Positions 24,173-32,976 are shown, counted from the stretch's first letter. The stretch is DNA of 64,000 nucleotides from an uncultured Stakelama sp. (GCA_964449575.1 CAYUYZ010000001.1:111944-175943); one strand, 5' to 3'. Made by a program: numbers and translations. Notes: generated by a model from the letters alone, not told the origin.

Positions 24173-24368
24173 GGTCGCTTCGATTCCGGTCTGGTGACGA
24201 CGACAAATGTTAGGGGGAGCGTAGCCGAAGAGGTTTAAGGCATGTTGAATGCGTCGATGCCGGGCGGTTTGGGGTGAGGGGGCGGGTTAGCGCGGGACGC
24301 CTTCGGGTTTTTAGGACCCGCTGTCGGTTGGTTTCGGGCGACGTCCGGACACCTTGTGCGTCGCCTAG

Positions 24369-24404
24369 GGCCTGTTTCTCGACTTCGCTCGAAACGAACG
24401 GGGG
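24369..24404. repeat. solo half-copy of palindromic repeat family 2
   Basis: GGCCTGTTTCTCGACTTCGCTCGAAACGAACGGGG, with no partner arm upstream. Confidence 0.7.
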
Positions 24405-24859
24405 GTGGAGGATCCGCGGGTCAGCGCAGAGGACACGCCAAGGCGCGGGCGCGTGGATACGCGCTCGCGGGGAGACGGGGGGGGACAATCGACCGGCGCG
24501 TCCTGCCACGGGCATCCGGGGCTTGACGACTTTGGGTAGTTCAATCTGCAAGCGTCAAGGCTTGGCAAGTCGACGATGAAGGTGCACGCCCCGGCTCCGA
24601 CACCGGTCAAAGTGGCATCCGCATCGGCGTTGAGGGAAACCCCGCCACCGCTGCTTCGCGTGCATTTAGCCTAGTCTCCTTCACCGCCCAGTTGCGGAAA
24701 ATCCGTCTTCTATCCACGGATGGCTCCGCGCCGGTCGATTGATCGGTCGGGGTTTAGCCCTGCCGATCGCAGCCATCATTCCGCTTACGTACCGGCCGGA
24801 TACGGTTGGAATGACGGGCAGACTTATAACCCAAATGGTTGTAAATGTCAAGCGAAGAT

Positions 24860-24867
24860 GTTGCTGT
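24860..24867. repeat. target-site duplication (left copy) GTTGCTGT
   Basis: An identical 8-mer directly abuts the outer ends of both terminal inverted repeats; the other copy is at 32153-32160. Confidence 0.85.
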
Positions 24868-24911
24868 GGTGGTGACGCAGTTTGAATTCTGGGGTTAGGG
24901 AAACTCAACAC
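24868..24911. repeat. terminal inverted repeat (transposase-proximal end)
   Basis: GGTGGTGACGCAGTTTGAATTCTGGGGTTAGGGAAACTCAACAC. Confidence 0.9.
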
Positions 24912-24939
24912 TGGCCTTGTATCGCGCCGGGAGCGCCTC

Positions 24940-26106
24940 TCAGCGCGGTCCACGATAGCCGCCCTGATTCCTATAGGACCCGAGGCACATTTTGCAGATA
25001 TAGTGCCGATCAGGTTCGAGTTCCACCGCAGCGGCCATCGCCTCGCCAAATGAGTGATGTCCCTTCCAACTGCCGTGTTTGCCAGTGCTTCGATCGGCCT
25101 CGTCCCGCCGCTTGCTGTGATGGCAATCAGACGTGTGGATGTTTGCCCGATATTGGGTCGGGTTATGATAGACCCAATGGGAAGGCGCATTTTCATTTGC
25201 GGGCACGGGTGCCCCTGCATCGTCATTAGCTGCCTGCTGTCGCAGACGTTCCTTCACGAACGCATTCGTCCGATCGACCAGCTCAGAGACTTCCCAAATG
25301 TGATCTGTCAGCCCCGCCGCCATCGCTGGGGGCATACGAAGTTTGCTGTGGATACGACAAAAGTTGGTGTACATTGCCCAGAGAGCGAGATGTCGTTTGG
25401 CGTTCAGCAGCTTTTTCGAGAACGCGTTAGTCCTTCGGGTAAAGCGCTTGATGTCCATGCGAACATTGAGATTTACTCGTTCAATGTAAGACGTGTGAAT
25501 CTCTCCGAATAGCGGGCTTCCGATGATGGGCACACGATCCGCCCCAACGTACCGCTCTCGGCCCAGCTTCTTGCCATTTTTCCCGAACTTTTCGTATTTT
25601 TTGATAAACATACCGAACTCGGCATCGGTCCCAAATGCAACCGCTGCCGCTTCTTTGTAGGCGGGAAGGCCGTCGGTAATGATGGTTGGCCGAACCGCGA
25701 AGCCACCTGCCGGCGCTCGCCGAAGTTTGCGCGCAATCGATTTGAAAAAGTCGGTCGCGTCATACACTTCGCGAGTGGCGGGCAGAAAATCGACAATCAT
25801 CTTGGATTCGGCATCGACAGCTAGATATACCCAGACGGTGCCAAGCCCGGATTTCGGCTGACCAGTTCTCCGGTCAACACGATCCCGCGTCCCCACGAAA
25901 GTGTGAAACTCGTCCGCCTGTATCCAGCGGCACTCCAAATCTCTGAGCTCCTCGAAATAGGCGATCGCCATGTCGCCGGCATCCTCGAACAGCTTCATCA
26001 CCGTGTTGAAACTGTGCTGGTGCTTGCGCTCAACAGAGCGGAGGGACGCCCCTTCAACGAGGTCGTGGAGTATCATCTTCTGTCGAGAAGCGTCCAGTCG
26101 GTTCAC
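24940..26106 (-). CDS. IS1 family transposase, single-ORF type with extra Cys/His-rich C-terminal region
   Basis: 388 aa. It has an N-terminal HTH and IQADEFHTFVG, VWVYLAVDAESKMIVDF, IITDGLPAYKEA, TSYIERVNLNVRMDIKRFTRRTNAFSKK, which parallel the IS1 InsAB' DDE region. Confidence 0.8.
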   Translation of the reverse strand: MNRLDASRQKMILHDLVEGASLRSVERKHQHSFNTVMKLFEDAGDMAIAYFEELRDLECRWIQADEFHTFVGTRDRVDRRTGQPKSGLGTVWVYLAVDAESKMIVDFLPATREVYDATDFFKSIARKLRRAPAGGFAVRPTIITDGLPAYKEAAAVAFGTDAEFGMFIKKYEKFGKNGKKLGRERYVGADRVPIIGSPLFGEIHTSYIERVNLNVRMDIKRFTRRTNAFSKKLLNAKRHLALWAMYTNFCRIHSKLRMPPAMAAGLTDHIWEVSELVDRTNAFVKERLRQQAANDDAGAPVPANENAPSHWVYHNPTQYRANIHTSDCHHSKRRDEADRSTGKHGSWKGHHSFGEAMAAAVELEPDRHYICKMCLGSYRNQGGYRGPR

Positions 26107-26214
26107 CTGATTTGTTCTCCTTTCGTTTTTTGTGCTTCACAATCTCAGTTTCGGCGCTATACCGGGTCAACGAATCGGCACCCGATGCCGTGACCCATAG
26201 AGGGCCAGAGCAAA

Positions 26215-26415
26215 ATGGCAAGTTTTGATTTTGTGCTGATTGGCAGTGCTGTGCCGCAAAGGATCGAAGTGCCTGCCGACAACCTGACCAGTCTGGCGGC
26301 CTACATCGCGGGCGACCGGTTCATCACTGGCGAGCTTGCGCCCGATGAGTGGGGCGAAATCCGGCGTGTTTTGATTCCGACCAACCGGATACAAATGATT
26401 TTGGAGGGCGAGTAA
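26215..26415 (+). CDS. small hypothetical protein (first cargo gene)
   Basis: 66 aa. Its stop overlaps the next ATG (TAATG). There is a weak GAGGG upstream and no recognisable family. Confidence 0.4.
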   Translation: MASFDFVLIGSAVPQRIEVPADNLTSLAAYIAGDRFITGELAPDEWGEIRRVLIPTNRIQMILEGE

Positions 26416-26984
26416 TGAAGACTAGATTTGTTGAGGGAGTAGGCAACGTCGGTTTGAGCTACTTCACGCCGGCGGAAGTCGCCGCGATGACCGGGTTGGG
26501 TGCTGATTTGCAGCGGGTCTGGCGTCGCCGCGACCAACTGGCCGCGCCTGCGGAGGGCCAGATTGGTATCGACGCCGAAGAAGTGGCGGCGGTGGCAGTC
26601 CGTCATGCACTTACCACCTTTGGATTTTCTCCGACCGACACACTGTCGATCAGCCGTGAAGCAGCTTCCCAAGTTCTGTTCTATGCGCTCCTTTCGGACA
26701 CAGGGGCCGCTGACATCCGGGGGCCTCTCAAACGAATTGCAGAAATTGCCGGACAGTTTGAACAGGACGAGCGAATCGCGATGGCGATTTCCGGCATCAC
26801 CCAACCGATCACGCACTTGTGGAGCGCGGGACCGCCGGCGGTGGAATTTGCCAATGATGCCGCCGCCATGCTCTCGGAAGAGCGTTACCCCGTGATGCTC
26901 GTGATCGATTTAGCCTTGATGGGGCATAAGCTCGTCAGGGCCAGCACGAAGCCGCTCTTCCTCATTGATGTCACGAGCTTTTAG
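26415..26984 (+). CDS. hypothetical protein with putative N-terminal MerR/excisionase-like HTH
   Basis: 189 aa. The ATG is preceded by GGAGGG. FTPAEVAAMTGLGADLQRVWRRR resembles a short HTH. The start of the ORF-track entry was trimmed to this ATG. Confidence 0.5.
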   Translation: MKTRFVEGVGNVGLSYFTPAEVAAMTGLGADLQRVWRRRDQLAAPAEGQIGIDAEEVAAVAVRHALTTFGFSPTDTLSISREAASQVLFYALLSDTGAADIRGPLKRIAEIAGQFEQDERIAMAISGITQPITHLWSAGPPAVEFANDAAAMLSEERYPVMLVIDLALMGHKLVRASTKPLFLIDVTSF

Positions 26985-27071
26985 TGGTTGTTTCGATGTG
27001 GATACCGTACTTGGGCGCAGCGGCATGTCAGACCTCGCTCGGGCATCAACACAAGAGAAAGGGGGACGAGC

Positions 27072-29165
27072 GTGTCGGCAATTTTTGACCTAACGCAAAA
27101 TCCGTTCGCAATCTTGGGTGTGAGTCCGAGGTCCGGCACCACCGAAATCGCGGATGCCAAAGCCGATCGGCTGTTCGACAGCGAATATGACGAAGCGGCT
27201 TTGGAAGTCGCGCATTCCGAACTGATCGTGGAGAGAAAGCGGTTGTTTCACGAGGTGTCGTGGCTTGCCGATTTGGCTCCCAACCGAGCGCGCGCGATTG
27301 TTGCGGAGCTTCCAAAGGTGGACTCTGCATGCGCAGCCAATGTCGTGCCCACCGAGGCTCAGCTTTCTCGCGTTAATGTTGCTGCTGATCTGCTTATGCG
27401 CTTCCCGCATGCGAGGGATTTGGCCCAAGAGTTGTTGGACGGGCACAACCAGATCGATTGGCGTTCTGTTCGCCAAACCATCGACGAAACCCGGGCTTTA
27501 TCGGGATTCGGTCTCACGAAGGATGACGCTTGGAAGAGGGCTCAGTCCGACTTGATTGACCGACATGCCGAGGCGTTGCTTGCCACCGTCACCATGACCG
27601 AAGATGGACCAGAGCTGCTTGCTTCGATGCTCGCGGCGTCACCGTCGGCAAAAATCCCTACCAATGGCCTGTTGGAGCGAACTGTTACGCAGTATGATCG
27701 CTGGTCAGTCCCACGGCTTGAACAGCTCTCTGAACAAATTGATGCGTCTTTGGCAGCGCTTAAGGCGGGTACCGACACAGAGGTTAATCTGTCGAGGTTG
27801 GAAAACCTCTTAGCCGATTGGGATCGGATCAGCCAACCGGTTCAGCTCAGGGATCAAGCAAAGGGTCTCGATGAGCCGCGATCGTTGCGACTCTTCAAGC
27901 ACGTGCGCGAAGTAGCGATTTGGTTCGCCAACGAACGCGATAACAACGAAGCGGCGCGCCGAATTACGGCGGCGTTCGCCGCCGCATTCTCGGAGCTTCC
28001 GACCGTGGCAGCGATGACAGCCGCCGATCTCAAGACCCTAAATGAAAACATTACCCACGCCGAGGCTTTGAAGGCGCTTCACCCCCTTGAAGTCGCGGCG
28101 GACGGGGCGATCGAAAAATTGTCCGATGCGGCAAAGCAGATTCGTGCTGGTGGCTTTGCGGCCGGAAAGCACGGCGTGATTGGGAGTCTATTCGCTGCAT
28201 TTGACGGCGTCCGCGAAAAGGTTGGCATGTTGCCCGACGCCAACACGCCTTGGCTGCTCGTCAGGTCGGTCGCGCTGGCACTACACAATGATCTCAAGGC
28301 ATCAGACGAGGCAAGAATTCTCATCGAGGCGATCATCGGAACGGCCCCCGATCAGGCGCGGGGTATGCTCGATGAAGATCTTCGTACCCTCCGATCTGTA
28401 ACATTACAGGATTCGTTCAACCGCGCGCTGGAAAGAAACGACTGGCGGGCTGCGCGCAACATGGTTGCGGCCATGATCGAAGCGGACCCAGAGCAAGCCG
28501 GTGAACTTCTGAAAGTTCAATCCTCTCTCGACGGTAAGTTGAGTAGTAGGAATTGGAAAAGGATCGGGTGGGGCATCGCTGCTGGGTTCGTATTTCTGAT
28601 CGTCATCAACGATAACGCAAGCAAGCCTACGCCCAGCGCCGCACCCGCATATAGCTATGATCCGTCAACCGAGCCTGCTTCTGGTTCGGATACGAGTGAG
28701 GCTCCGGTCACACCTCCGGACGCTGCGCCGATGGATACGACAGAGCAAGAACCACCGATGTTTAATATAGAAGGTTTGACTCTTCCGCAGCTAAGATTCT
28801 GCAAGTTCGAAAACGCACGTTTAGATATTCTTAAAGACCTCGTAACGACCGCCATGGCAAGCGAGTACAACGCGAAAGTCGATAACTACAATAACCGCTG
28901 CGGGCGATTTCGTTATAAAGAAAGCGACATGACTCAAATCGACGCAGAGATTGCTGCAAAAGGGCCGCAAATACGGGCTGAAGCCACAAAACTCCTTTCG
29001 ACTTGGCGAGCGTTAAGCATGCCTGAATGGGCCGCCGACCCTGTCGTCCCGAGCACAGCTTCTCCACAAACACAGCGGCCTTCTCCGCTGGATGATCTGG
29101 GTCTTGGAACCCAATCAACGCCCGAGGATCAAACTCCAGCCGAAGCGAAACCCGATGACAACTGA
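27072..29165 (+). CDS. single-pass membrane protein with HPD-less J-like N-terminus
   Basis: The GTG start is preceded by AAAGGGGGA. NPFAILGVSPRSGTTEIADAKADRLF resembles J-domain helices I-II, but no HPD follows. It has a long helical middle, a TM segment WGIAAGFVFLIVI, a P/S/T-rich linker and a ~130-aa C-terminal domain. Confidence 0.6.
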   Translation: MSAIFDLTQNPFAILGVSPRSGTTEIADAKADRLFDSEYDEAALEVAHSELIVERKRLFHEVSWLADLAPNRARAIVAELPKVDSACAANVVPTEAQLSRVNVAADLLMRFPHARDLAQELLDGHNQIDWRSVRQTIDETRALSGFGLTKDDAWKRAQSDLIDRHAEALLATVTMTEDGPELLASMLAASPSAKIPTNGLLERTVTQYDRWSVPRLEQLSEQIDASLAALKAGTDTEVNLSRLENLLADWDRISQPVQLRDQAKGLDEPRSLRLFKHVREVAIWFANERDNNEAARRITAAFAAAFSELPTVAAMTAADLKTLNENITHAEALKALHPLEVAADGAIEKLSDAAKQIRAGGFAAGKHGVIGSLFAAFDGVREKVGMLPDANTPWLLVRSVALALHNDLKASDEARILIEAIIGTAPDQARGMLDEDLRTLRSVTLQDSFNRALERNDWRAARNMVAAMIEADPEQAGELLKVQSSLDGKLSSRNWKRIGWGIAAGFVFLIVINDNASKPTPSAAPAYSYDPSTEPASGSDTSEAPVTPPDAAPMDTTEQEPPMFNIEGLTLPQLRFCKFENARLDILKDLVTTAMASEYNAKVDNYNNRCGRFRYKESDMTQIDAEIAAKGPQIRAEATKLLSTWRALSMPEWAADPVVPSTASPQTQRPSPLDDLGLGTQSTPEDQTPAEAKPDDN

Positions 29166-29535
29166 AAACGCTGCCATAGACCCTACTTTGGCACTGACCC
29201 AGGTCGCCGTGGAAATGTGGAAATTGCTGCGGGCGTTCGAGCGGACCTTTGTCGATCTGCCGGCGGAAAAGCTCCCTAATCGAGTGGCTCAGCATCGCTA
29301 CTCTACGTCACGATTGAATGCCCTGTTAGATGGCGTGGGAATAAAGCTGCTAACATTCGATGGGGAGCAATTCACCGCCCACTTGCCCGTCAGCCCGGCG
29401 AATGCTGACGACATTGAAGACGCAGATAGTGCAGTCATTGAATCAACAATCGAGCCGACGATCATTGGCCACAACGTGGTACTTCACATCGGAAAAGTGA
29501 TGCTTGCGGGGAATAAAAATGTATCTCGGGATTGA
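29155..29535 (+). CDS. GrpE-like putative nucleotide exchange factor (short)
   Basis: 126 aa, overlapping the upstream gene by 11 nt. LNALLDGVGIKLLTFDGEQFTAHLPVS...VIESTIEPTIIGHNVVLHIGKVML parallels the GrpE C-terminal pattern (GV..I...G..FDP..H.A ... V..GY......LR.A.V.V). Confidence 0.5.
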   Translation: MTTENAAIDPTLALTQVAVEMWKLLRAFERTFVDLPAEKLPNRVAQHRYSTSRLNALLDGVGIKLLTFDGEQFTAHLPVSPANADDIEDADSAVIESTIEPTIIGHNVVLHIGKVMLAGNKNVSRD

Positions 29536-32041
29536 CCTTGGCACCTCAAACTCGGCGGTCGTCGGCAATGACGATGGTGTTTTGCGCCTTTTCAAAACCG
29601 CCGATGGCCGGGACGTATTGCCGAGTGCCATTTATATCGACCGGCGTGGAAACCGATTTGTCGGCAAGAAGGCGCAGGATCAGGCTTCGCTCGCACCGGA
29701 AAACGTCGCGCAAGGCTTTAAGCGCCTGATGGGCACCTCGACCCCTTTCAGTTTTGCGGGCAGCGATTTTCAAATGAGTCCCGAGGAGGCCAGCGCGGAA
29801 GTTCTGAGGACTTTGGTGTCACAAGTTAAAACCGAGGCTGGAGATGTGATCATTCAAGGCACGGTCATCACCGTGCCCGCTGCATTCAATCAAATGCAGT
29901 CTGAAGCGACCATTCGATCTGCGGCAGCGGCAGGCTTAACTGCTGTTGGCTTGCTGCAAGAACCTGTGGCTGCCGCATTGTCGTCCTTGGAGGTCGCGAC
30001 CAACAAGGATGGAATTTTCCTCGTTTACGATCTCGGCGGCGGAACGTTCGACGTGGCACTGGTTCAAAGTACCCGTGGAGCGGTGACGGTCTTGGCACAC
30101 GAGGGTGTAAATATGCTCGGCGGTCGCGATTTTGATCGCAGTATCGTCAACAGCGTCGTTCGCCCTTGGCTCTTGGAAAATTACGATCTCCCAAACGACT
30201 TTCAAAAAGACCCGCGATTTCGTCGTCTTGTTCGGCTGGCTGGCATGAAGGCTGAAGAGGCCAAGATCGACCTTTCGACGAGAGACACAGTGCAAATCTT
30301 CGTTGCTGAGGAGGAGGCCCGCGTCGAAGATCGGTCGGGGCAGGAGATATTCATTGATGTGCCCTTGCATCGCAGCCGTCTCGAAGAATTGACACGAGAC
30401 GGTGTCGATACGTCGATCGAACTGTGCAGAAAGATTCTATCAGACAATGGTTTGTCGCACGACGATGTTGACCGACTCGTATTCATCGGAGGTCCTTCAA
30501 AGATGCCCTCGATCCGTGATCGAGTGCCCAAAGAGCTTGGCATCGCCCCTGATCTTCGCACTGATCCGATGACCGCAGTTGCGCGCGGAGCCGCGATCTT
30601 TGCGGAAAGCCGAAATTGGGGTGAGGCCGGGAAAACGGTACGAAAGGCTACGCGCGGATCGAAGAAGACTGCCAGCACGATCGGTGTTTCATATGATTTT
30701 GAAGCCCGGACGACGTCTGGAGAGGCTCGGATCAGAATCACGGCAACGGGCGAGACGGCCGGTTTCAGAGTTTCTTTGACGAATGATGACATGTGGGATT
30801 CAGGGCAAATCGATCTACAAAAATCACAAACTCTTGTAGTTCCGCTATCTCGAAAGGGTGCAAATCGCGTCCAGATTACTGTTACCGACAATCAGGGTGC
30901 GCCGGTAACAGCAGCATCTGCCGAATTAGTCATTACCAAGATCGATGCTAGTGCTGCGGGCATTCCTGCGACGCAAACGATCGCAGTAAAATTGCGGACC
31001 GGAGATGGGCCCTTTGCACGCAATGAGCTGAGTCCGCTCTTTGAGAAAGGGACAATCCTACCCGCCTCCGGCGTGAAGCGGTTTCGGGCATCGGAAACAC
31101 TCAGAGGAGATGTCGATGGTCATCTAGACGTAGAGATTTTCGAAAAGACCCACGGCGTCCCCGAACCTGAGTTGAACCTTTTCATCGGATGTTACCGCAT
31201 CACGGATGAAATGCTTGAGCAAGATGCCGTAGTGCGGAAGGGTGACGAAGTTATCGTTCATTGGAATGTGGACGACAACATGCTCCTTAGCTGCGCGATC
31301 GAGCTGCCTGCGCTCGGCCTAAAACTCGATGACCATCGCTTTTATGTCCCATCGATCGGCCACAAAAATTATGATGGTGAGACTGGGCGTTTGATTGCTT
31401 CCAAAGCACTTGCAGATGCTCAGCAGGACTTGAACGTCGTGGGCGAGGCTTTGGAAGGCAAAGCCGGCAATGAAATCGCCGCTCTGCGCAGACGCATCGA
31501 TCGCCAACTCAACGAACTCGCCAAAGGGGACGATGCCGACGTGTCTCGATCGGTAGAGGAGGAGGCACGTCATGTCCGACAGGAAGTTTCACGGCTCAAG
31601 CATGACCCTGCATTTCGAAAACAGGTTCTAGCCGCCGACGTTGATCGCGCCACGGACATATTCGCCGAGCTGGTAGACGACGCCGACGATGAGACAATCG
31701 CACGTCTGAAGCAACTTGTAGCCACAGCGGAGCGGAGTTTGGCCGCAGATGATCTGGAGACCGCCGAGCGGGCTGTCGAAGACATCAGGATGCTCGTCGG
31801 AGCCGCCGTCCGTCGTCAGCCGGCCTACATGGTCGCCGCGTTTGAGCGCGCCGCAAGTGAGGGTTACCTCGCGATTGATCAGGCTCTTCACGATCGAATC
31901 GTTCTTGAGGGAGAAAAGGCACTAGAAAGAGGTGATCTTACGGCCTTGAATGCTGCTACTTTCGCGCTTTATCAAAATCGCGCAGAGGTCGATGGACCGA
32001 ACGGCGATCTTGCAAACCTTGCTGGCTTGATGAGCGTTTAG
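29519..32041 (+). CDS. divergent Hsp70 family ATPase (840 aa) with long non-canonical C-terminal half
   Basis: The product starts MYLGIDLGTSNSAV. It also has VYDLGGGTFDVALV, FIGGPSKMPSIRDRV and AVARGAAIFAE, the Hsp70 phosphate-1, phosphate-2 and adenosine motifs. It overlaps the GrpE-like gene by 17 nt. Confidence 0.85.
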   Translation: MYLGIDLGTSNSAVVGNDDGVLRLFKTADGRDVLPSAIYIDRRGNRFVGKKAQDQASLAPENVAQGFKRLMGTSTPFSFAGSDFQMSPEEASAEVLRTLVSQVKTEAGDVIIQGTVITVPAAFNQMQSEATIRSAAAAGLTAVGLLQEPVAAALSSLEVATNKDGIFLVYDLGGGTFDVALVQSTRGAVTVLAHEGVNMLGGRDFDRSIVNSVVRPWLLENYDLPNDFQKDPRFRRLVRLAGMKAEEAKIDLSTRDTVQIFVAEEEARVEDRSGQEIFIDVPLHRSRLEELTRDGVDTSIELCRKILSDNGLSHDDVDRLVFIGGPSKMPSIRDRVPKELGIAPDLRTDPMTAVARGAAIFAESRNWGEAGKTVRKATRGSKKTASTIGVSYDFEARTTSGEARIRITATGETAGFRVSLTNDDMWDSGQIDLQKSQTLVVPLSRKGANRVQITVTDNQGAPVTAASAELVITKIDASAAGIPATQTIAVKLRTGDGPFARNELSPLFEKGTILPASGVKRFRASETLRGDVDGHLDVEIFEKTHGVPEPELNLFIGCYRITDEMLEQDAVVRKGDEVIVHWNVDDNMLLSCAIELPALGLKLDDHRFYVPSIGHKNYDGETGRLIASKALADAQQDLNVVGEALEGKAGNEIAALRRRIDRQLNELAKGDDADVSRSVEEEARHVRQEVSRLKHDPAFRKQVLAADVDRATDIFAELVDDADDETIARLKQLVATAERSLAADDLETAERAVEDIRMLVGAAVRRQPAYMVAAFERAASEGYLAIDQALHDRIVLEGEKALERGDLTALNAATFALYQNRAEVDGPNGDLANLAGLMSV

Positions 32042-32109
32042 TTGGCTGCCTCGGGATACGCGCTGAACGGAGCCATCGCGGCCTGCTATCGCCGCCCCAC
32101 TTTCGCGGA

Positions 32110-32152
32110 GTGTTAGTTTCCCTAACCCCAGGATTCAAACTGCGTCACCACC
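32110..32152. repeat. terminal inverted repeat (cargo-proximal end)
   Basis: The reverse complement reads GGTGGTGACGCAGTTTGAATCCTGGGGTTAGGGAAACTAACAC. Confidence 0.9.
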
Positions 32153-32160
32153 GTTGCTGT
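32153..32160. repeat. target-site duplication (right copy) GTTGCTGT
   Basis: Identical to 24860-24867. Confidence 0.85.
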
Positions 32161-32272
32161 GGGCGGTGGGCTCGTGACCCTGAAAAGGGGGAATGGCGGG
32201 AACTGGGAGAAAGCCGACGGGCAGCTTTCGGCTCACGCTCCTACGAAGCGGACGCTAGTTTTGCTGGAAAGT

Positions 32273-32788
32273 TCAATTGCGATTGCCGCCCATCAGACCA
32301 ATCGAAAGCGATCTTCGCCAGCCCGCCGCTGCCACGATGCGGCCCGCCTCAAATGTAAAGGTAACAGGGAAGGCAACCCTTGCGGTCGCGTCAATGAACT
32401 CAACCTCGACCTTCTGTACCGCGCACGCATTTTGGATCGGTGTCGGTATGCTGTCCCATCCGTAGTAACGGAACGAAGAAGGATTCATGTGCCTCGTAAG
32501 GGCTCGCAATCCGTCGACGCCTGAACCCATCGGAAGGCCGACATCGCCCCCACCTGAGGAGAACGTTGCGGAAGGCGAAACCAACTGAGCCAAGCGCGGA
32601 TCGGCCTTTGAAGAAGGCGTCGCCGCCCATCGCACCGCGTCCACCGCTCGCTTGCTGAGGATAGCCTGCAATTCCCCGATCGTTTGGACTTTGTCTAAGC
32701 CGCACCCAGCAGGCGTAGCTGCCGAAGCTGCCAGCGGTGCGAAAAACGAGGTTGCGATCAATATGGTCGCTTGAACAGAGAACCCCAT
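32273..32788 (-). CDS. hypothetical secreted protein
   Basis: 171 aa with a signal peptide ending LAASAATPAG. It lies outside the transposon but also has lower G+C. Confidence 0.55.
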   Translation of the reverse strand: MGFSVQATILIATSFFAPLAASAATPAGCGLDKVQTIGELQAILSKRAVDAVRWAATPSSKADPRLAQLVSPSATFSSGGGDVGLPMGSGVDGLRALTRHMNPSSFRYYGWDSIPTPIQNACAVQKVEVEFIDATARVAFPVTFTFEAGRIVAAAGWRRSLSIGLMGGNRN

Positions 32789-32976
32789 AAAATGGATCTT
32801 CCTTTGAAGCTCAATCGCTGCAACCCGTCGGTCAGTACGGGCATGGCATGTTGTGGCCTGGATGAACGACTGCCCGCAATCAGGAATCGCGGTGTTGCCT
32901 TGGAATGGCTATTTCTGGCCGTTAGCCGTCAAAGCCCTACCCATCGCCCCTACCTCTACGACGCGATCCGACGCGC

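Follow-up and report, generated by a model that had tools for sequence, protein, structure and literature searches.

An intact, apparently recent IS1-family unit transposon with an Hsp70-type cargo cassette in an uncultured Stakelama sp., and the related elements to which it leads

A stretch of 64,000 nucleotides from an uncultured Stakelama sp. (GCA_964449575.1 CAYUYZ010000001.1:111944-175943), referred to below as the window and numbered from its first letter, holds at positions 24868-32152 an intact element of 7,285 bp. The element is very probably one unit transposon (a 'transporter IS', where IS stands for insertion sequence) of a divergent branch of the IS1 family with a single open reading frame (ORF) for its transposase, which is the best explanation for the full set of observations, and it is apparently a recent arrival. 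The features at the locus, from left to right, are the following.

24823-24828, minus strand: -10-like hexamer TATAAG, 17 nt downstream of TTGACA and reading away from the element
24846-24851, minus strand: target motif TTGACA (GTCAA on the plus strand), lying outward of the left repeat by 15 nt and of the 8-mer by 7 nt
24860-24867, no strand: left copy of the target-site duplication, GTTGCTGT, which is present once at the empty site in contig L103
24868-24911, plus strand: transposase-proximal terminal inverted repeat, 44 nt, beginning GGTGGTGACGCAGTTTGAAT
24940-26106, minus strand: gene for a single-ORF DDE transposase of 388 aa, with a GTG start and an AAGGAG ribosome-binding site upstream
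26107-26214, no strand: divergent control region of 108 bp that separates the transposase gene from the 66-aa gene
26174-26186, no strand: palindrome ATCGGCACCCGAT, adjoining GTCAAC at 26166-26171
26215-26415, plus strand: core gene for a 66-aa protein, its stop overlapping the next start (TAATG)
26415-26984, plus strand: core gene for a 189-aa protein with a predicted MerR-type winged helix and an alpha/beta C-terminal domain
27072-29165, plus strand: cargo gene 1, for a 697-aa protein in which a single membrane helix is predicted; its ORF may alternatively start at 26988
29155-29535, plus strand: cargo gene 2, 126 aa, overlapping both neighbouring genes
29519-32041, plus strand: cargo gene 3, 840 aa, with an Hsp70/DnaK-type nucleotide-binding domain (NBD)
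32110-32152, minus strand: cargo-side terminal inverted repeat, 43 nt
32153-32160, no strand: right copy of the target-site duplication, GTTGCTGT, abutting the cargo-side repeat

The ends of the element are sharply defined. A preliminary description of this DNA, made from the sequence alone, had reported near-identical inverted ends abutted by the same 8-mer, and both observations are borne out: in a pairwise alignment, 24868-24911 and the reverse complement of 32110-32152 differ by one T/C mismatch and one 1-nt indel, with no similarity beyond, and GTTGCTGT stands at 24860-24867 and again at 32153-32160 as a perfect 8-bp direct repeat. The DNA outside the two 8-mers is unrelated, so that the identity is not part of a larger duplication. 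The terminal repeats form the longest inverted repeat within 24700-32300, and their 38-nt core occurs exactly twice in the window (0 expected, from 100 shuffles). The G+C content is ~0.55 within the element as against 0.63-0.71 in the wider flanking chromosome, which encodes ordinary housekeeping proteins, and scans for Rfam families and tRNA genes around the insertion site returned no match. The immediate flanks (24173-24867 and 32161-32970, ~1.5 kb) are themselves low in G+C (0.58-0.59) and poorly coding, and sit between a DUF4274 gene and small ORFs.

An empty counterpart of the same site is found in a related strain whose flanks are ~96.6% identical to those of the window. It lies on contig L103 (Logan ERR14374084), which came up when the 171-aa protein encoded immediately to the right of the element was looked up by exact match. 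The contig aligns to window positions 34349-32153 (96.5%) and then directly to 24869-24713 (96.8%); at the junction ACAGCAAC, which is GTTGCTGT read on the other strand, occurs once. The flanks are thus contiguous in a relative. Because they are joined there with a single 8-mer, the whole 7,285 bp was inserted as one unit, and the earlier suggestion that the 7.3 kb moves as a unit and not as a composite agrees with the absence of the entire segment from the empty site. The occupied site is present at the identical position in four other public assemblies, and the site is polymorphic between strains that are ~97% identical. A simple course of events would account for this arrangement: the transposase would bind the two terminal repeats that begin with GGTGGTGAC and would join the ends to target cuts staggered by 8 bp, the repair of which would yield the GTTGCTGT duplication.

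The element has many relatives. A genome scan with the transposase alignment gave 80 loci, in which elements were delimited by pairing GGTnGTG...AGTTT ends; of the elements so defined, 26 (1.9-10.5 kb) combine paired repeats with a perfect 8-bp duplication, and in 3 more the duplication matches at 7/8 positions. For instance, in the JGI contigs L005-L012 the transposase is 84% identical to that of the window and the element measures 5,006 bp, with the duplication ATCAGTTT. Relatives that would end with their own repeat at the equivalent of ~26.1 kb were looked for and none was found, the transposase-side repeat always being paired beyond the cargo. A megablast of the whole element against the PLSDB plasmids gave no match, and the 38-nt repeat core of this subgroup was not found when metagenome contigs were scanned for exact copies of it.

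Several observations weigh against the interpretation given above, and each is taken here with the alternative to which it lends itself. All public copies of the exact element share one site, no second insertion site having been found among the copies in public data, and for this reason present-day activity is not demonstrated. In addition, residue 331 of the transposase is a Ser in place of a near-invariant Cys, the second one of the C-terminal Cys/His cluster, that is present in 22 of 24 relatives. Both points would suit an element that transposed in at some time and whose copy is now fixed or immobile (domesticated or decaying), the cargo having become a resident chromosomal operon. This is unlikely, given that this copy retains an intact transposase ORF, DDE triad, repeat pair and duplication, that the close relative in L005, whose transposase may be the other sequence with Ser at 331, has a perfect duplication of its own, and that the site is still polymorphic among such similar strains.

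The position of the insertion with respect to its surroundings is a further regularity. In the window the minus strand from 24851 to 24823 has the sequence TTGACA-N17-TATAAG, and L103 has TTGACA-N17-TATAAA at the same place; the promoter-like arrangement therefore predates the insertion. In 18 of 28 related elements GTCAA has its end 14-15 nt beyond one of the repeats, which may be that on either side, and the corresponding empty site follows a common pattern, in which the 8-bp duplication is followed by N6-7 and then by (C/G)TTGAC(A/T)(C/T), TTGAC being directed outwards. With a background of 8e-4 per position for GTCAA, the binomial P is ~5e-33 for the 18/28, a value that applies to a motif picked post hoc. 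An independent set of 124 distinct ends (L109-L222), obtained by a metagenome scan with a repeat pattern of 15 fixed bases, has GTCAA at exactly 14 nt in 12/124 and in at most one at any other distance (P 4e-18). The insertions are thus statistically associated with the motif, which by our own tally is present in 15/17 elements with a long (at least ~387 aa) transposase as against 3/13 of those with a short one.

The motif also tends to have the company expected of a promoter. More specifically, -10-like hexamers at a spacing of 16-18 nt have a mean best match of 3.14, compared with 2.47 for the control (C/G)TTGAC(A/T) sites elsewhere in the same loci (P 3e-4). Gene calls by third parties are available for two loci (L005 and L104), and in both the box faces a gene that starts ~60-150 nt downstream; most sites are without a coding-like ORF across the junction, according to a test based on G+C at third codon positions (GC3) that is crude and suggestive only. 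We conclude from these comparisons that the family, and the long-transposase clade in particular, appears to insert at a constant distance on the upstream side of -35-like boxes, and infer that the transposase may read the TTGAC box itself, or else something bound to it. At the preferred sites the duplicated 8 bp lies 6-7 bp upstream of a sigma-70 -35-like (C/G)TTGAC(A/T), which would place the element just upstream of a promoter with no gene broken.

It can be argued that TTGAC is not read by the transposition machinery at all, and that the pattern comes from purifying selection for intergenic promoter insertions or from chance. Most sites indeed look intergenic, the -10-like boxes are only moderately enriched, and the promoter-like enrichment could stem in part from the survival of insertions that fall between genes and do no harm. 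Of the 28 elements, 10 (about a third) have no such motif, nor do the plasmid relatives L229 and L230, and some of the motif sites are orthologous and not independent (L024, L027). However, selection for intergenic positions would not fix the distance at 14-15 nt, the 12 near-junction motifs of the independent set are without exception exactly 14 nt away, and the motif always has the same orientation with respect to the junction, whichever way round the element lies, all of which makes an explanation by selection or chance decidedly unlikely. The 189-aa protein and the C-terminal tail of the transposase were each considered as sole chooser of the target and were rejected, since the short-transposase elements L047, L050 and L059 lack them and show the motif. 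Flanks that bear the motif are those of the window and of L005, L015, L016, L019, L020, L023-L027, L031, L040 and L041, and further of L047, L049, L050, L059 and L066. In the window, the promoter-like site faces ~250-650 nt without a convincing gene.

The assignment to the IS1 family depends on the transposase and on the termini. No transposition enzyme is present in the element other than the 388-aa protein, which had been described as an IS1-like single ORF and which does prove to be related to InsB of IS1 (see below); its ORF ends 28 nt inward of the left repeat. Residues D65, D145 and E209, the catalytic ones, are invariant across the clade alignment. The C-terminal ~80 aa form a Cys/His-rich extension in which H324, C328, C371 and C374 are invariant, a pattern that suggests a zinc-binding module; searches of Pfam, NCBIfam, PADLOC, PHROGs and PDB sequences with this tail found no match. 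His329 and His330 adjoin the unusual Ser331 and might substitute for the Cys.

Curated models alone would not place the protein in IS1. It scores 21.2 bits against Pfam DDE_Tnp_IS1 (PF03400; cut-off 24.1) and 40.9 bits against NCBIfam IS1 (NF033558; cut-off 100), below threshold in both cases, and is thus a divergent member. Among 8,000 candidates scored there are 2,908 homologues at E<=0.001, many of which carry PF03400 or the name 'IS1 family transposase', with PF03400 seen in proteins of 40-68% identity; since the curated thresholds are missed while the homologues carry PF03400, membership rests on transitive homology. A direct comparison is also available: in hhalign, the profile of 24 clade members matches E. 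coli IS1A InsB with a probability of 96.2% and an E-value of 2.5e-9, and the alignment pairs ADE with MDE, TDGLPAY with TDGWPLY, YIERVNLN with RIERHNLN and RRTNAFSK with RKSLSFSK. Homology to IS1 InsB is established by this profile alignment.

The ends of the element tell the same story, and the earlier statement that the repeats start as in IS1 is confirmed by their first letters, GGTGGTGAC. The element termini GGTGGTGACGCA resemble GGTAATGACTCC and GGTGATGCTGCC of IS1A and share with them the pattern GGTnnTGAC; both ends read GGTGGTG and fit GGnnnTG, the IS1A ends being GGTAATG and GGTGATG. The target duplication of IS1 is 8-9 bp, a range that includes the 8 bp seen here. The likeness to IS1 (E. 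coli IS1A, with InsA and InsAB') therefore covers a homologous DDE core, a repeat start of the form GGT(A/G)(A/G)TGAC and a short fixed duplication.

There are also clear differences. IS1 has two reading frames, insA and insB, joined by a -1 frameshift, whereas the window element has one uninterrupted ORF of 388 aa, which fits the 'single ORF' IS1 subgroups of ISfinder and not classical IS1. Unlike InsA, the protein has no N-terminal Cys zinc finger (the first 58 residues are free of Cys); it has instead the C-terminal Cys/His extension, together with an insertion of ~45 residues between the second D and the E. Finally, IS1 measures 0.77 kb, in contrast to 7.3 kb with accessory and cargo genes here, and the TTGAC-proximal target of many members of the clade is another point of difference.

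A real element of a family other than IS1, namely IS6 or IS1595, is a very improbable alternative. In its favour there are weak matches to DDE_Tnp_IS240 (19.2 bits, cut-off 27) and NCBIfam IS6 (31.3 bits, cut-off 125), an 8-bp duplication that is typical of both IS6 and IS1595, and the existence in ISfinder of cargo-carrying IS1595 subgroups of up to ~7.9 kb. Furthermore, IS1595 is described as related to IS1 in a passage of PMC3129680 that cites Siguier 2009. Against this, the IS1 models outscore the IS6 models in both libraries and only IS1 and IS240 models were reported, with no match to DDE_Tnp_IS1595 or Zn_Tnp_IS1595 even at E<=10; the InsB comparison aligns all catalytic motifs, the termini have the GGTnnTGAC of IS1A, and PGAP and JGI assign homologues of 35-40% identity to the IS1 family.

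Passenger genes within a single repeat pair, with one transposase gene and no flanking IS copies, define a unit transposon, which is what the window contains; a composite transposon would have two complete IS copies, whereas here there are one transposase gene and two repeats only. The absence of an internal repeat next to the transposase start, as first described, holds even when 3 mismatches are allowed near ~26.1 kb. A composite or decayed structure, with an IS1-like element of ~1.2 kb on the left, a solo relic repeat on the right and unrelated genes bracketed between them, would suit the position of the transposase gene at one extreme end and the size of classical IS1 (<1.5 kb), but is hardly tenable and in fact already refuted by the empty site, which lacks the entire segment, with the missing internal repeat, the duplication enclosing all 7,285 bp, and the perfect duplications around relatives with 5-10.5 kb between their repeats pointing the same way.

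How far such a cargo-carrying element departs from what is known depends on the comparison chosen. The ISMhu11 subgroup of IS1 in ISfinder includes elements of up to ~4.6 kb, compared with the 7.3-10.5 kb reached here; a named member of the present group may already exist. To call an IS1 element with cargo unusual, as was done in the preliminary description, is fair, but it is not unprecedented, because cargo-carrying 'transporter IS' are already an accepted category (PMC9330008, PMC7986276), the concept being credited also to Siguier et al. 2009 in a citing passage of PMC3129680. The window element shares with these one transposase gene and passengers in a single repeat pair, movement as a unit and an 8-bp duplication, and differs in that the elements here have a conserved MerR/CvkR-like module and mostly defence cargo. 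Tn7-like and CRISPR-associated transposons offer another parallel, as units with a core at one end, a variable and defence-rich cargo, a MerR-type regulator and a 'safe' target; however, a single IS1-type DDE protein stands here in place of TnsA/B/C and a target selector, and the present elements are far smaller and lack a guide RNA or TnsD. In the Tn3 family, too, repeats enclose a transposase gene, a divergent small DNA-binding gene and passengers, but the Tn3 transposase is unrelated and much larger, its duplication is 5 bp, and its accessory gene is a resolvase, whereas no recombinase is detectable in the window element.

Comparison of the DNA of related elements shows how they are put together. 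Window positions 24868-26975 are 94% identical to L017 and 74% to L005, and this similarity stops at the stop codon of the 189-aa gene, to return only in the distal repeat. The core delimited in this way measures 2.1 kb and takes in the repeat, the transposase gene, the control region, the 66-aa gene and the 189-aa gene; it is conserved, and what lies between it and the distal repeat is a cargo segment that can be replaced. In at least 11 loci the transposase gene is found together with the 66-aa and 189-aa genes; the 66-aa gene stands beside it in L005, L015, L016, L017, L022, L034 and L041 (36-100% identity), and its product had no match in searches of Pfam, NCBIfam, PADLOC, PHROGs and PDB sequences.

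The 189-aa protein has 12 close homologues in sequence searches, and an exhaustive profile search gave 540 clusters of similar length. A first AlphaFold model from 12 sequences (predicted local distance difference test, pLDDT, 56) is superseded by one from a 99-sequence alignment, with pLDDT 96.4 and a predicted template modelling score (pTM) of 0.92. The best PDB structure match of this model is CvkR (7xn2, E 1.6e-3, probability 1.0), followed by the N-terminal domains of CueR, CarH and GlnR, so that the predicted structure is that of a protein with a MerR-type N-terminal winged helix-turn-helix; support from sequence is weak, consisting of a CarH match and one homologue with PF13411. In type V-K CRISPR-associated transposons, CvkR serves as the MerR-type repressor (PMC9938897). 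In L005, L016 and L017 the palindrome is retained as ATCGG-N3-CCGAT or as a close variant. On the strength of the CvkR-like fold and of this conserved palindrome in the divergent region, the 189-aa protein would regulate the divergent promoters, and hence transcription of the transposase gene and/or the cargo. The MerR-like protein might use the palindrome after the GTCAAC box as its operator.

In the window the cargo segment is occupied by three genes that form a translationally coupled operon (697, 126 and 840 aa) and that represent a widespread mobile module. Residues 3-362 of the 840-aa protein match the NBD of DnaK (E 2.6e-48), and the remaining ~480 aa had no sequence match beyond residue ~365, including to a canonical substrate-binding domain. 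The 697-aa and 126-aa partners had no family match in Pfam, NCBIfam, PADLOC, PHROGs or PDB sequences, nor was a DnaJ or GrpE match found in either, and an initial impression of a J-domain at the N-terminus of the 697-aa protein was dropped after family and structure searches gave no match. The 840-aa protein belongs to a large family of ~840-aa proteins, whose genes are preceded by genes for ~660-730 aa and then ~121-140 aa in Alphaproteobacteria and Acidobacteria.

Copies of the cassette elsewhere (L095-L098, L225-L227) adjoin integrases, ParDE and an MmeI-type restriction system, as well as a PD-(D/E)xK protein, HIRAN, and the TrwB/TrwC of a conjugative element. None of these copies lies within an IS1-type element, and the transposon has thus captured an independently mobile module. 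A defence or conflict system is the most plausible reading of the cassette, at slightly less than even odds, by association: its slot holds known defence systems in sister elements. Predicted conflict systems are known to include Hsp70-like ATPases (PMC11090510, PMC7159879), but their GTPase, tubulin or McrBC partners are lacking here. From the cassette PADLOC returned only a trivial 39-residue match to the candidate PDC-M61B (E 6e-6).

The cargo of the sister elements is listed below, each with the locus that carries it.

L005: C5 methylase and a helix-turn-helix (HTH) protein
L015: type III restriction-modification (PADLOC MTase_III, 1e-278)
L016: type IIG enzyme (4e-282)
L017: nested IS21
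L021: GmrSD/NsnA, HEPN and a C5 methylase
L023-L029 (Brevundimonas): czc-like RND and CDF metal efflux
L031: SIR2-STAND protein
L040: KAP NTPase candidate PDC-S49 (2e-169)
L041/L104 (S. daechungensis plasmid): ABC-3C, HNH, Nudix and YaaC proteins
L066: Avs2-like SMEK-NACHT protein and a radical-SAM enzyme

Judged from these predicted functions, the cargo slot is exchangeable, its content differing in nearly every element and being mostly related to defence. The transposase of L041/L104 bears the PGAP label 'IS1 family transposase'.

In full-text literature searches no description was found of defence cargo in the IS1 family, of a CvkR-like module in it or of insertion directed to -35 boxes, and the regulator module, the defence cargo and the target preference of the clade thus appear to be undescribed. 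As a tentative proposal, somewhat short of an even chance, the elements would make up an undescribed and mainly alphaproteobacterial clade derived from IS1, which combines the MerR/CvkR-like module with a swappable slot dominated by defence genes and with sequence-directed insertion upstream of -35 boxes. If true, the Hsp70-NBD cassette would be a candidate for a new defence system, and promoter-proximal insertion would be a 'safe-site' strategy unreported for IS1-type elements.

The pair of occupied and empty sites is a clean, bounded example of a minimal IS1-type transposase moving a payload of several kilobases. The wider interest of the window element lies in the family that it reveals, which could (i) provide a new vehicle for the horizontal spread of defence genes in Alphaproteobacteria, the payload usually being an immune system, (ii) offer a cargo slot that can be mined for uncharacterised systems such as the Hsp70-NBD cassette, itself a candidate new conflict system found across phyla without a catalogue entry, and (iii) provide compact, protein-only steering of insertions next to promoters, if the fixed-distance TTGAC preference belongs to the transposase, which would be of interest both to transposon biologists and to the builders of insertion tools.

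Some further observations concern individual relatives. The closest relative of the core, L017, is on an uncultured Sphingomonas chromosome (OY729425.1) at an insertion site different from that of the window; an IS21 (istA/istB) lies just past its 189-aa gene (L017 6351-8700), and its distal repeat was not located within the 10 kb examined, the nested IS21 pushing it farther away. In two Caulobacterales (L024 806-11305 and L027 806-11307) a 10.5-kb metal-efflux element is found at orthologous promoters in opposite orientations, by either independent homing or inversion between the repeats. Brevundimonas sp. SSC2 (CP059260.1) has two copies with an identical left flank (L025 531-9800 and L072 2021-11302), of which that in L072 is without a target duplication, suggesting recombination or rearrangement between the copies.

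Plasmid relatives with a short transposase (L229 4555-8778 from Hoeflea and L230 4796-8165 from Mesorhizobium loti) have 2-3 passenger genes and perfect 8-bp duplications, from which it follows that cargo carriage is widespread in the IS1 family beyond the long-transposase clade. At the other extreme of size, repeat pairs only 156-559 bp apart are present in L112 (2760-2937), L146 (1342-1900), L153 (3055-3210), L166 (3657-3824) and L208 (2172-2473), the pair in L146 having the perfect 8-bp duplication CCTTTCCG; these look like non-autonomous derivatives of the IS1 clade, similar to miniature inverted-repeat transposable elements (MITEs).

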